From the IMG/VR virus record IMGVR_UViG_3300022554_000002, positions 32,001 through 96,000 of that record: a DNA stretch of 64,000 bases. One strand, 5' to 3'. This DNA is from a virus. The translations under genes and the position numbers were made by a program. Shown here piece by piece: positions 9,454-33,628 of the stretch. The notes beneath the pieces were generated by a model. That model made no database searches. It had not been told where the DNA came from and worked only from the letters and a program-made list of their open reading frames with translations. Position 1 is the stretch's first letter, and the number at the start of each line of letters is the position of its first letter.

Positions 9454-10045
9454 CTTCATCCTCATCTTCTGTCATTGGAAGAACCCAACCATTAGCACTG
9501 TCTATCGAAAAACCATTTAAATTACGACCAATCAGGTAGCATTCATATGCAGCCTGAATAACAGCCTCATGTAAATCTCTACCACGAACCACCAACTCAT
9601 TATTTAAAGCATCTGAATACAATTTAACACTAACTTCTGGTGCTTCTGGATTAATAACAATACCACCTTCGTAAGAAAAATTATAAGTACACATAAGAAT
9701 GATTGTTATAAGTTCTTGAAGACTTGGAATTTTAACATATTTATTGGACGATAAAAACTTCATATCGTCAAAAGTAAATTCTTCTTTTTCATTATTCTTT
9801 TTATACAAATTCACAACGTAACTTGGTGCTTCATCTGTTCCTATGTTAACATAATACCAATCACCGTGTGAAAGTGTTTGTGGCATACCTAATTTTTTAA
9901 AATAAGCAGAAAACATCAAAACGCCACTGGAAAAATTCTTTTTGCCTAAAAATAATGACCATGGCAGATCAGACGGAACTTTAGTCTGAAATGGAAATGA
10001 ATCTTCTGGTTTCTTCTCGGTAGGACGTTTTTCTTCGTTAGCCAT
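9446..10045 (-). CDS. Hypothetical protein
   Basis: 199-aa ORF behind a promoter and SD GGAG. Confidence 0.7.
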   Translation of the reverse strand: MANEEKRPTEKKPEDSFPFQTKVPSDLPWSLFLGKKNFSSGVLMFSAYFKKLGMPQTLSHGDWYYVNIGTDEAPSYVVNLYKKNNEKEEFTFDDMKFLSSNKYVKIPSLQELITIILMCTYNFSYEGGIVINPEAPEVSVKLYSDALNNELVVRGRDLHEAVIQAAYECYLIGRNLNGFSIDSANGWVLPMTEDEDEDA

Positions 10046-10062
10046 GCGAATCTCCTAAGAGT

Positions 10063-10090
10063 ATTTTACAGGCAAACATCATTTTGTCAA
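10063..10090 (-). promoter_or_regulatory. Sigma70-type promoter TTGACA-N16-TAAAAT
   Basis: CTTGACA and TGTAAAAT upstream of 10045. Confidence 0.7.
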
Positions 10091-10429
10091 GTCATTATTT
10101 TTATTTAAATCGTTTGTATGCAATGTGATAACACCAACAAATGGTTTTTTCTGAAAAATACCAATATAATCAACAAATTTATGAAACACATTAGCTAGTC
10201 GATGAATGGCAAACACATAAGCAAAGAAAATTGAAAGTGGCATAAAGAAAATGAAATAAAAAGCAATCCAGACACTAATACAATAGGGACAAAAATCATC
10301 AACGGGTGAGAACACTAATCTCACTGGTTTGAACAATTCTGATTTAGTCAATATCTCAGTTACAGCCTCTACAGCAATTATTAATACAATTAGATCACGA
10401 ATCGATAGTTCGGTAATCACATTCAGCAT
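10079..10429 (-). CDS. Membrane protein, DUF1360-like
   Basis: Hydrophobic helices with the FCPYCISVWIA motif. Confidence 0.6.
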   Translation of the reverse strand: MLNVITELSIRDLIVLIIAVEAVTEILTKSELFKPVRLVFSPVDDFCPYCISVWIAFYFIFFMPLSIFFAYVFAIHRLANVFHKFVDYIGIFQKKPFVGVITLHTNDLNKNNDLTK

Positions 10430-10586
10430 TTGAACACCAGAATATTACTAATTCTCCCTTTACTGTCTTTCCCAATGGTGCACTGCAATTCGGACACAAT
10501 CTATCTGTAAGTTGATTCCCTTCCTTTTCCACAACTACTGTAGGTGTTAATATTCTTGGTGGGTTTGGATTACAATTACAACCCAT
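10395..10586 (-). CDS. Small zinc-finger protein
   Basis: CPNC...CSNAEC; N-terminal GCNC. Confidence 0.6.
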   Translation of the reverse strand: MGCNCNPNPPRILTPTVVVEKEGNQLTDRLCPNCSAPLGKTVKGELVIFWCSNAECDYRTIDS

Positions 10587-11091
10587 AAGGTGAATAAACC
10601 TCTAAATCGTACAATTCACCCTTGAAATGTGCTTTCAAAGGTAAATCAACAAATTTAAAAGTTTCATACCCAATTTTAGTTTGTTTAACAATATTAGTAA
10701 TTTTTGAATGTTCTGCTGCCCACCGATCCTTGCAAAATTCATCCCAAATTGGATGAAATATGATTTTCTTTACTCTTGCATTAATTAAATTGCCCAAACA
10801 ATGAATACAAGGTCTACCCGTGACAAACGCTAGTGAGTTTGCTGTACTATGTCCCAATCTAGCGGCATTTAAAACAGCATTATGCTCTGCGTGAATAACA
10901 GAATCATATTTTTCGTCAGTATGTAACACGCTATCATCTGTACCTTCAGGCATTCCATTATAACCATAGGAAATGGGCCTAAAAGTATCATCTACCAAGA
11001 AACAACCATGTTTAGAAGATGGGTCTTTAGACCAAGATGAAACGTGAAATGCCATACCCATGCAACGTGCATACCATTGATTTAAATTCAT
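10576..11091 (-). CDS. dCMP deaminase (cytidine/deoxycytidylate deaminase family)
   Basis: SKDPSSKHGC, GYNG, HAEHNA and PCIHC motifs. Confidence 0.92.
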   Translation of the reverse strand: MNLNQWYARCMGMAFHVSSWSKDPSSKHGCFLVDDTFRPISYGYNGMPEGTDDSVLHTDEKYDSVIHAEHNAVLNAARLGHSTANSLAFVTGRPCIHCLGNLINARVKKIIFHPIWDEFCKDRWAAEHSKITNIVKQTKIGYETFKFVDLPLKAHFKGELYDLEVYSPYGL

Positions 11092-30850: not shown

Positions 30851-31258
30851 TTAACTAGCTCTAGTTCCAGTATACAGCTTGGGCTTCTCTTTAATATTAA
30901 ACTTTTCCTTCAACTTCTCAATAGCTTCCTGCACTTCCTCAAAATCAATTTCCTGTTCATCAAGAGAATCACCATCGGAACTAACGTCTGCAACAATGTA
31001 CCCCACTAAATCATCACCACCATCAATAACCAAGTATTTAATATTCTTAATACCAAAATCATAATTATACAAAAATTCATGCCAAGTATCCTCTACACCA
31101 TATTTTTCTAAATTCTTAATAACATAATCACTACCATGCTCTTCAATAAACTTTCGTTGCTCATCCTCAGACTCAGGCAATACCTTACTTGCCTTGAATC
31201 CAAAGACCACAAACGAACTACTAGAACTGTTACTCACGAAACCATTACGAATCTTCAT
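30851..31258 (-). CDS. Hypothetical protein, MKIRNGFVSNSSSSSF family (copy 3)
   Basis: Conserved N-terminal motif; acidic body. Confidence 0.85.
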   Translation of the reverse strand: MKIRNGFVSNSSSSSFVVFGFKASKVLPESEDEQRKFIEEHGSDYVIKNLEKYGVEDTWHEFLYNYDFGIKNIKYLVIDGGDDLVGYIVADVSSDGDSLDEQEIDFEEVQEAIEKLKEKFNIKEKPKLYTGTRAS

Positions 31259-31270
31259 AGCTATTCTCCT

Positions 31271-31579
31271 TTATCCATCATACCAAGATTCTTCATATGT
31301 TTTACAGGCAGGAACAGGTTTGTCTTTAAATACTTCCTTTAACTTCTCTTCAACACTCTTCTTAAACATGGCACCTGTTTCATCATCTTTAACAGAAGAC
31401 CATGACCGACCAATATAGGTAGCATAATCCTGTTGATGGATTTCTAAACCTTCAATATAAGCATCGCCATACTTATCCTGTGGTAAAAATGATAAGTCTG
31501 CATCTTCATCCAAATGAATACCAAAAATACAAAAACTACTGGAACTACTGTTACTGACAAAACCATTACGAATCTTCAT
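31271..31579 (-). CDS. Hypothetical protein, MKIRNGFVSNSSSSSF family (copy 2)
   Basis: Conserved N-terminal motif. Confidence 0.85.
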   Translation of the reverse strand: MKIRNGFVSNSSSSSFCIFGIHLDEDADLSFLPQDKYGDAYIEGLEIHQQDYATYIGRSWSSVKDDETGAMFKKSVEEKLKEVFKDKPVPACKTYEESWYDG

Positions 31580-31592
31580 TTCTGTTCTCCTT

Positions 31593-32024
31593 TTAGGTAT
31601 ATGTACTATCTACGTAAACGCTATCACCACCAATTTCTTTTAAACTCTCAACAAAGTTTTTAAAAGCACACTCTAAACTAAATTTAGAAATAACTTCAGC
31701 GTCTCTCCACGCACGACAACCACACTCAGGACAATATTTAATATCTCCTTCTGGTAATTTATGGTCACAACCCCTTACTTTTGGTTGTTTTTCATTATAC
31801 TTCCACGCAACAGTATGAAAAGAGTTTTTATAACTATCTCCTGTGGTAATCATCATAAGAACTAGCTTCTCACCACAAAATGTAAATTCCTGCTCACAAG
31901 CAGAAACAGCTAGACGTTCTTCCTCAGTACAAGTAGCCTTTGCTGCTTCTAATGTTTTCTTTTTTACAATAACTACAAAGGAACTTGAGCTACTGTTACT
32001 GACAAAGCCTTGTCTAGTCTTCAT
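31593..32024 (-). CDS. Hypothetical protein, MKTRQGFVSNSSSSSF family (copy 1) with zinc ribbon
   Basis: N-terminal motif; CDH...YCPECG. Confidence 0.85.
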   Translation of the reverse strand: MKTRQGFVSNSSSSSFVVIVKKKTLEAAKATCTEEERLAVSACEQEFTFCGEKLVLMMITTGDSYKNSFHTVAWKYNEKQPKVRGCDHKLPEGDIKYCPECGCRAWRDAEVISKFSLECAFKNFVESLKEIGGDSVYVDSTYT

Positions 32025-32686
32025 GGGTTATTCTTCTTTTCAGCAGCAGTATATGCTGTAGTCATATCAACACCCTGCCCACCTGTTCGATGTGACTGAG
32101 TATGAGCAGACAAAGCCAAATAAACACAACGAACACCACCACCAGTATGTTTAAAATTACAACTGGATGCTCCTGCAATACCATAGGAAGCACCTTCAGC
32201 AAATGCATCCTGATTAGCACCAAGGAACACAAATTCCCACTTCTTACCCTGCTGTGTCTTAATCATTTCCTGAATCTGTGACTTAGTGAAATCACTACTG
32301 GCATTTTCCTGCCCATCCGTAATAATTGCAACAATAACTTTCTTTGGTTGTTTCTTCTTAGGAGTGCTGTCAATACGACGATTTACAGCGTCAATCGTTC
32401 GGCCAACAGCATCTAATAAAGCAGTGCTGCCAGAAGGAACATAACTGTTATCATCCAAATCCTTAACATCCTTAATGGGAACACCGTCATAAAGTAAGCT
32501 GTACTCAGCATTAAACAATGCCAATGATACCTTAATATCGCCACCTAACTTCTTTTGGTCCGCTAGTAAGGTATTAAAACCACCAATAGTATCTGTGCGA
32601 ACGCAACCCATTGAACCGGACTTATCAAGAACAACAATAAGCTCAGTGGGAACCTTCTTAGTCTTTACTGCCTTTTTCTTTGCCAT
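32021..32686 (-). CDS. Stand-alone von Willebrand factor A (vWA) domain protein
   Basis: MIDAS LDKSGSM, GSTALLDA, IITDGQEN and WEFVFLGAN. Confidence 0.9.
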   Translation of the reverse strand: MAKKKAVKTKKVPTELIVVLDKSGSMGCVRTDTIGGFNTLLADQKKLGGDIKVSLALFNAEYSLLYDGVPIKDVKDLDDNSYVPSGSTALLDAVGRTIDAVNRRIDSTPKKKQPKKVIVAIITDGQENASSDFTKSQIQEMIKTQQGKKWEFVFLGANQDAFAEGASYGIAGASSCNFKHTGGGVRCVYLALSAHTQSHRTGGQGVDMTTAYTAAEKKNNP

Positions 32687-33600: not shown

Positions 33601-33628
33601 ATTATACAGACAAACTTTGAAATGTCAA
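33601..33628 (-). promoter_or_regulatory. Sigma70-type promoter TTGACA-N16-TATAAT
   Basis: Perfect hexamers. Confidence 0.8.

Follow-up and report, generated by a model that had tools for sequence, protein, structure and literature searches.

We describe a short, serine-rich N-terminal sequence, here called the tag, that opens many otherwise dissimilar small phage proteins, together with a radical S-adenosylmethionine (SAM) enzyme whose gene accompanies the tag genes. The tag was noticed in a 64,000-nucleotide stretch of viral DNA (positions 32,001 to 96,000 of the IMG/VR virus record IMGVR_UViG_3300022554_000002; hereafter the window), where three consecutive tag genes, the trio, lie beside a gene for a probable von Willebrand factor A (vWA) protein. 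We put the chances at about even that large phages of many habitats share an undescribed tagging system, in which one radical-SAM enzyme would place a novel modification on the tag of small acidic proteins belonging to more than 20,000 families, and in which a set of these clients has, in the present phage, moved beside the vWA gene. The central element of this picture, in which one phage radical-SAM enzyme serves many clients and both recognises and modifies them at the tag, we regard as moderately probable.

A tag at the first residue of small phage proteins

The three tag proteins of the window (Table 1) start with MKTRQGFVSNSSSSSF, MKIRNGFVSNSSSSSF and MKIRNGFVSNSSSSSF, respectively, that is, with MKTRQ, MKIRN and MKIRN, followed in all three by GFVSNSSSSSF (pattern MK[IT]R[NQ]GFVSNSSSSSF). 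The preliminary description of this DNA had reported three consecutive open reading frames (ORFs) with a near-invariant leader of 16 residues, and both the ORF calls and the comparison of the tags bear this out. It had also held that the leader is conserved at the protein level, as its serines are encoded by differing codons, and this too stands: the 48 nucleotides that encode the tag are identical at 33-38 of 48 positions within the trio and at 27-42 of 48 across all six copies of the genome, and the serine codons are of six kinds (AGT, AGC, TCA, TCC, TCT and TCG). Such differing codons and low DNA identity indicate that the constraint acts on the peptide and not on the DNA.

The window belongs to a complete phage genome of 194,473 bp, which has direct terminal repeats and comes from a sediment metagenome. 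This genome encodes exactly six tag genes, a number on which a six-frame scan and a profile search agree. Over the 194 kb the tag profile matches these six only, with E values from 1e-18 to 2e-20, which excludes chance as the origin of the shared start. Besides the trio, three tag genes are found on the plus strand at genome positions 12547 (181 residues), 21759 (94 residues) and 187455 (153 residues), and the six genes are thereby spread over four sites. Pfam and NCBIfam hold no family for any of the six proteins, the matches to DUF5569, Spectrin_6, Zn_ribbon_15 and zf-RING_4 being far below their cut-offs.

The tag is by no means peculiar to this phage. From the six N-termini a profile of 32 positions was built; run against 1.84 billion representative proteins, it matches 20,658 clusters (50% identity) at E≤1e-3. 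Of the 150 best clusters, 144 match from residue 1 or 2 onward, and the proteins are about 45-290 residues long. Nine long proteins were considered as candidates for carrying the tag and none was convincing, so we find no fusion of the tag to a known domain. An IMG/VR sample of 82 tag-selected loci, counted per 20 kb, contains 364 tag genes, from 1 to 15 per 20 kb, arranged in tandem arrays that keep to a single strand within each locus. Among 185,579 cellular species genomes there are nine tag loci, mostly on contigs of metagenome-assembled genomes, and these contigs may be mis-binned phage; outside phages the tag is all but absent. Against cultured phages, neither the locus in blastn nor the 102-residue protein in tblastn gave a match, a result likely due to divergence and to the low-complexity filter.

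A profile-based logo of 486 distinct N-termini gives the 16-residue consensus M-K-[IVT]-R-x-G-F-V-[ST]-N-S-S-S-S-S-F. K2, R4, F7, N10, S11 and S12 are essentially invariant, the last three in 485-486 of the 486 tags, while G6 and S9 are conserved at 95% and 96% and positions 3 and 5 are free. Asn-Ser and Ser-Ser are bonds used by inteins and pyruvoyl enzymes, and the invariance of N10, S11 and S12 would suit a tag that processes itself at Asn-Ser-Ser, by asparagine cyclisation or serinolysis, to leave an N-terminal serine or a pyruvoyl group; the preliminary description had raised such a cleavage at Asn-Ser, along with a modification of the poly-Ser stretch. The bodies of the proteins, however, offer no conserved catalytic context, and self-processing would leave unexplained both the radical-SAM partner and the co-variation at tag position 9 that are reported in the next section; we consider it very unlikely.

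A radical-SAM gene accompanies the tag genes

In one of the sampled loci (L004) a radical-SAM protein of 353 residues directly precedes the tag array. It is homologous to a protein of 355 residues in the present phage, encoded by a single gene at genome positions 9619-10686, outside the window. When the genome is read as a circle, the tag genes at 187455, 12547 and 21759 lie within about 17 kb of this gene, and the trio of the window is a detached set, 52 kb away from it. A tblastn search with the phage enzyme located the gene within 10 kb of the array in 59 of the 82 tag-selected loci, always on the same strand. Of the 23 loci without a nearby enzyme, at least seven carry the gene in another part of the record, among them both of the tested records that are at least 90% complete; the remaining ones are mostly fragments.

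The same association is seen when the enzyme is taken as the starting point. With a 10-sequence alignment we found 80 enzyme-selected loci (a locus search with a single protein gave 2), and a tag gene is present within 10 kb in 74 of them. In 50 of these 74 loci the first tag gene lies less than 1.5 kb downstream of the enzyme (median 458 bp). Five of the six enzyme loci without a nearby tag gene have tag genes elsewhere in the record, the cultured Klebsiella phage KP15 among them. When the 5,372 genes in these loci were all clustered, no third co-conserved gene family emerged.

Moreover, tag and enzyme vary together. In all of the 25 loci with enzymes of a divergent clade, which is made up of three sublineages mutually at most 60% identical, every tag gene encodes threonine (or alanine) at tag position 9, and in all of the 108 loci of the main clade position 9 is mostly serine.

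Some further observations concern the enzyme gene itself. In the cultured T4-like Klebsiella phage KP15 (NC_014036.1) the enzyme homologue is KP15_135 (90116-91318), and the tag genes KP15_102 and KP15_97 (66515-70885 region; loci L180 and L181) are 20 kb from it. The enzyme homologue on an IMG/VR contig of 547,943 bp (L034:7630-8703) has an in-frame TAG at the conserved tryptophan of an R-W-G motif, which suggests stop-codon recoding in this huge phage. In the present genome an ORF of 313 residues with no Pfam match (genome 11122-12063; L001:2123-3064) separates the enzyme gene from the nearest tag gene. An annotated homing endonuclease adjoins the enzyme gene in Vibrio phage D479 (L179:9076-9804), and in Cronobacter phage leB the enzyme gene was matched in two pieces. 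A split copy of the enzyme gene with a GIY-YIG gene has been reported (PMC9960720). It seems that selfish elements gather around the enzyme gene.

The enzyme and its relatives

Judged from its sequence, the enzyme probably represents a branch of the SPASM/twitch type of radical-SAM enzyme that is still uncharacterised; known members of this type modify ribosomal peptides or proteins. This placement draws on the cluster motif, on cysteines in the C-terminal part, on the matches of the family profile and on the homologue of KP15. The motif reads CPNRCKFC (CX3CX2C), has only about 60 residues ahead of it and is accompanied by a match to Pfam Radical_SAM (PF04055; 2.9e-10, 41 bits against a cut-off of 29.5); its cysteines are invariant in an alignment of 26 sequences, and four further cysteines, C258, C287, C305 and C349, are invariant in the C-terminal part. 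The family profile matches SkfB (1e-6), SuiB (5e-5) and BtrN (8e-4) in the PDB, and the KP15 homologue passes the Pfam SPASM model with 26.1 bits against a cut-off of 21.5. The PDB matches were obtained with the family profile alone, since phmmer with the single enzyme sequence against PDB sequences gave no match; pentatricopeptide rows in the PDB profile table held no passing stretch and were ignored. Among NCBIfam models there are weak partial matches only (tungsten-cofactor maturase, MftC, WgkB, NirJ2 and StsB).

A pair of glycyl-radical protein and activase was also considered and set aside. The invariant glycine of glycyl-radical proteins stands close to the C-terminus, within RVxG[FWY], and these proteins are served by a PflA-type activase, whereas G6 of the tag is N-terminal and, at 95%, gives way to S, T or D in some tags, and the enzyme resembles SPASM/twitch maturases.

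The bodies behind the tag

In a sample of 542 distinct tag proteins the median length is 129 residues. The bodies are strongly acidic (median isoelectric point 4.5, with 91% below 5.5), and BLASTP sorts the proteins into 198 clusters, 145 of them singletons. When the 17 largest body families were compared profile to profile with the tag removed, 2 of 136 pairs reached a probability of at least 50%. The bodies of the trio had already been called dissimilar in the preliminary description: tag protein 1 is a singleton among the 542 and aligns with the family profile of tag protein 2 over residues 1-19 only, tag protein 2 falls in the largest sampled body family (53 members, C-terminus ...EEAW[YR]DG), and tag protein 3 has full-length relatives with ADVSSDG and GTRxS motifs. 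All six tag proteins of the phage match the family phrog_7397 just over its first 18-25 positions, tag protein 1 over positions 1-25.

The variety of the bodies bears on what the tag is for. The co-occurrence and the position-9 co-variation would also be expected of an adapter, in which the tag docks small proteins on the enzyme and the variable bodies bring host molecules to it as substrates; an adapter would account for 198 clusters among 542 proteins and for the lack of a second conserved site in the bodies. However, the nearest relatives of the enzyme modify the peptide that they bind, and N10, S11 and S12 are invariant beyond the usual need of simple docking. We know of no characterised SPASM/twitch enzyme with exchangeable targeting subunits, and we judge an adapter to be unlikely.

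In AlphaFold models of two of the proteins the tag is a seemingly exposed tail of low confidence. The model of tag protein 2 has a predicted local distance difference test (pLDDT) score of 83.5, with residues 9-12 below 50, and runs from a strand at residues 15-24 through strand, strand and helix to a last strand. That of tag protein 3 scores 86.4, with residues 1-10 below 50, and consists of a strand at residues 13-22, three helices, two strands, a helix and a strand. Both models share a ferredoxin-like succession of elements (strand 1, insert, strand 2, strand 3, helix, strand 4); in both, residues 1 to about 12 are of low confidence and unpacked, and residues 13-16 open strand 1. From these models, a minimal core may be common to some body families, with the invariant part of the tag outside the core. 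A Foldseek search of the PDB with the 135-residue model returned nothing at E≤1e-3, and a wide search with VIA-align reached a Z of at most 4.4, confined to the three-helix insert; no fold was assigned. The structural neighbours are weak and ferredoxin-like (ACT, P-II and designed ferredoxin folds). Look-alikes of the 143-residue protein in the ESM Atlas are unnamed viral clusters and ferredoxin-like folds of low template-modelling score, and serve as leads only.

It had been foreseen that the tag could be just the first β-strand of one shared fold, and this is correct in part: S13-F16 begin strand 1, and two of the three bodies have the same order of strands and helices, but the invariant residues 2-12 are unpacked in both models. 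A broader version would derive all tag proteins from a small ferredoxin-like ancestor, as one divergent superfamily in which the tag is a functional loop (for a ligand, a metal or oligomerisation) with the first strand, the enzyme being linked through a shared pathway. The order of elements common to the two models, the start of strand 1 within the tag, the ferredoxin-like character of the weak structural neighbours and the alignment of the families of proteins 2 and 3 over 106 columns would all agree with such a descent. That alignment, though, includes the tag, and its probability is 16% once the tag is removed; the 2 of 136 pairs, the 19 residues shared by protein 1 and the family of protein 2, the unpacked residues 2-12 and the lack of a significant fold match likewise argue against a single superfamily, which we find distinctly unlikely.

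Possible metal-binding elements occur in several bodies. The zinc ribbon that had been noticed in one member of the trio is indeed there, as a zinc-ribbon-like C-x-H...C-P-E-C element of tag protein 1, and an insert of this kind, G-C-x-H...C-P-E-C-G, recurs across body families (window 31593-32024 (-), L001:3548-4093, L027:10001-10420 and L042:10001-10435). The 181-residue paralogue has a different pair, C-x-x-C...C-x-x-C. A widespread body family of 39 members and about 171 residues ends in a conserved E-H-G-G-x-F...I-S-H-H motif (L180:5871-6386, which is KP15_102; L004:4903-5544; L007:3090-3635), and this motif looks like a metal site.

The vWA gene beside the trio

The trio of the window forms part of the replication operon, with the vWA gene on one side and the primase gene on the other (Table 1). 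The ATG of tag protein 1 overlaps the TGA of the vWA gene (ATGA; CCATGAAG), as had been reported before. The intergenic gaps after tag genes 1, 2 and 3 are 13, 12 and 19 nt, the last of them leading to the primase gene, and there is a Shine-Dalgarno sequence at each. A perfect sigma-70 consensus (TTGACA, 16 nt, TATAAT; window 33601-33628, minus strand) lies upstream of the run of genes that leads to the vWA gene, the trio, the primase and the polymerase, and because of this consensus the trio is probably transcribed together with the replication genes.

Table 1. The vWA gene, the tag trio and the tag-coding stretches, in window positions
Feature	Position	Strand	Basis or remark
vWA protein with predicted metal ion-dependent adhesion site (MIDAS), 221 residues	32021..32686	-	ORF; phrog_7371 match; MIDAS residues from sequence
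Tag protein 1, 143 residues, zinc-ribbon-like C-x-H...CPEC element	31593..32024	-	ORF
Tag protein 2, 102 residues	31271..31579	-	ORF; member of 53-member body family
Tag protein 3, 135 residues	30851..31258	-	ORF; own full-length family
48 nt for the 16-residue tag of protein 1	31977..32024	-	
48 nt for the 16-residue tag of protein 2	31532..31579	-	
48 nt for the 16-residue tag of protein 3	31211..31258	-	

The vWA protein matches phrog_7371 at 1.4e-58 and, in Pfam, VWA with 19.6 bits and VWA_2 with 19.8 bits (E about 1e-3), both below their cut-offs. The residues of a putative MIDAS are intact in its sequence, as had been stated (D21-x-S23-x-S25, T88 and D124). The main idea of the preliminary description was that the tag binds this MIDAS, which would make the vWA protein the partner of the tag. 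The overlap of the two genes is in its favour, as is the presence of a vWA-like gene at or near the edge of the array in four other loci (at the edge in L042 and L094, at or near it in L059); in KP15 the tag genes KP15_102 and KP15_97 flank KP15_100, a protein of 738 residues with Pfam VWA_2. When co-occurrence was checked across loci, however, an iterated profile seeded with the vWA protein of the window and KP15_100 found vWA-like genes in just 6 of about 163 tag or enzyme loci, and KP15_100 has no detectable similarity to the vWA protein of the window. The family of the latter is present in 217 cultured phage records, from phages of Streptomyces, Microbacterium, Pseudomonas, Gordonia and others. 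Five complete phage genomes with close relatives of it contain neither a tag gene nor an enzyme gene, as searched with queries that did find their targets in other records, which shows that this vWA family works without the tag. In the present phage the trio is the only site with a vWA neighbour, and the other three of the six tag genes are far from any vWA gene. The usual ligand of a MIDAS is an acidic side chain, which the tag does not offer.

We consider docking of the tag on the MIDAS extremely unlikely. The vWA gene is most likely an ordinary operon neighbour and not a general partner of the tag, and its adjacency to the trio misled the first reading of this locus. The vWA genes near tags in L042, L094 and KP15 remain as an unexplained hint, which we do not count as support. 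The more general proposal, a shared docking or processing module on variable cargo, fares better, because the tag is the only part common to hundreds of body families, the models show it as a tail and a dedicated enzyme co-occurs with it; what changes is the partner, which would be the radical-SAM enzyme and not the vWA protein.

Proposed role of the tag

We infer that the 16-residue start is a portable N-terminal tag that marks a small phage protein as the client of an enzyme, in the present phage the product of the single SPASM/twitch-type gene at 9619-10686. The enzyme would bind the exposed tail ahead of the first β-strand and modify a residue in or beside the invariant F-V-S/T-N-S-S. The co-variation of S9/T9, taken with the invariant N10-S11-S12, points to this segment, and a reaction at the N10-S11-S12 core is plausible. 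From what is generally known of SPASM enzymes, the candidate reactions are oxidation of a serine β-carbon, epimerisation, and a C-C or C-O crosslink between the flanking phenylalanines and the Ser/Asn stretch. The bodies would carry the individual functions, plausibly in host takeover or counter-defence; being acidic, diverse and encoded in arrays, they plausibly resemble phage accessory or counter-defence proteins.

What the sequences show is the tag itself, its breadth and its place at residue 1, the intact cluster cysteines of the enzyme, the co-occurrence in both directions and the co-variation at position 9; the action of the enzyme on the tag, its reaction and the roles of the bodies are conclusions drawn from these.

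Several points weigh against this explanation. The evidence that bears on a modification is of a genomic and predictive kind. The similarity of the enzyme to named maturases is weak: in Pfam SPASM the L004 homologue falls below the cut-off, and the phage's own enzyme has no match at E<0.1. Neither Pfam nor NCBIfam detects a leader-binding domain of the RRE/PqqD type in the enzyme, where RRE stands for the recognition element of ribosomally synthesised peptides that are modified after translation (RiPPs), and there is no separate RRE gene co-conserved with it. The tag is devoid of cysteine and has no obvious residue pair of the characterised SPASM maturases. Tag genes without an enzyme gene are present in several fragments and in two of the tested records, which are 79% and 88% complete. 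The switch at position 9 may be one ancient event kept by all paralogues, since the divergent clade has three sublineages. Finally, the low pLDDT of the tag tail is a measure of uncertainty and not a proof of exposure.

Should the proposal be true, these phages would possess a large stock of effectors matured by the enzyme, which may have an N-terminus that is reactive or resists proteases and may serve against host defences. Protein modification by radical-SAM enzymes would then gain a new class, one with natural substrates in the thousands, and the very many phage proteins that now lack annotation could be approached through a shared feature. The tag is an easy search mark for these proteins, and cultured carriers exist in Klebsiella phage KP15 and its relatives.

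Comparison with known systems

A full-text literature search for FVSNSSS found no paper, a search of the literature on radical SAM, SPASM, phage and RiPP combined gave nothing relevant to the tag system, and the papers on KP15 and KP27 make no mention of the tag or enzyme genes. The nearest entry in a phage protein collection is PHROG 7397, to whose positions 1 to about 25 all six tag proteins of this phage match; this is one unannotated family, and it misses both the N-terminus common to hundreds of unrelated bodies and the link to the enzyme.

The capsid-targeting sequence of T4 offers a likeness in gene organisation. Internal-protein loci of T4 hold tandem hypervariable genes with a shared N-terminus, and, as in the tag arrays, these small and fast-evolving genes have only about 10-16 N-terminal residues in common. 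By this model the tag would be a leader that directs its protein into the prohead, or to export from the cell, and is cleaved off afterwards, and it fits that some carriers, such as KP15, are T4-like Straboviridae. The tag, however, contains no glutamate at which a gp21-type cut could be made, its last residues belong to strand 1 and it has no hydrophobic core of a signal peptide. Moreover, the conserved neighbour of the tag loci is the radical-SAM gene and not a head or protease gene, and the trio stands in a replication operon, between the vWA and primase genes. We attach a very low probability to a targeting leader.

Among enzymes that modify proteins, the nearest precedent is the anaerobic sulfatase-maturating enzyme (anSME), a SPASM enzyme that recognises a short motif in the N-terminal part of its clients and can oxidise a serine side chain. 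The system of anSME/AtsB and the sulfatases resembles the present one in that one maturase serves many clients, here one enzyme gene and six tag genes. The differences lie in the clients, which are not sulfatases, and in their motif, as (C/S)-x-(P/A)-x-R is absent from the logo of 486 N-termini; the phage enzyme had no match to anSME in NCBIfam or the PDB at the thresholds used.

A close parallel in genetic arrangement is with the SPASM/twitch maturases of peptides (SkfB-SkfA, SuiB-SuiA, CteB, MftC and PqqE), to which the best PDB matches of the enzyme family belong and where a radical-SAM enzyme with a C-terminal auxiliary Fe-S domain (a putative one in the phage enzyme) is likewise encoded beside genes that share a short recognition sequence. 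RiPP precursors are short and consist of a cleavable leader and a core, whereas the phage clients are proteins of 45-290 residues with a median of 129 and confident predicted folds; similarly, the phage loci lack a co-conserved leader protease and a transporter or exporter family. The phage tag sits at residue 1 and continues into the fold, up to 15 or more different clients occur in one genome, and the system is confined to phages. Thus, the kind of system is a known one, a radical-SAM maturase with tagged ribosomal clients, and its form is new: folded clients, a tag at residue 1, many clients in each genome and a restriction to phages.

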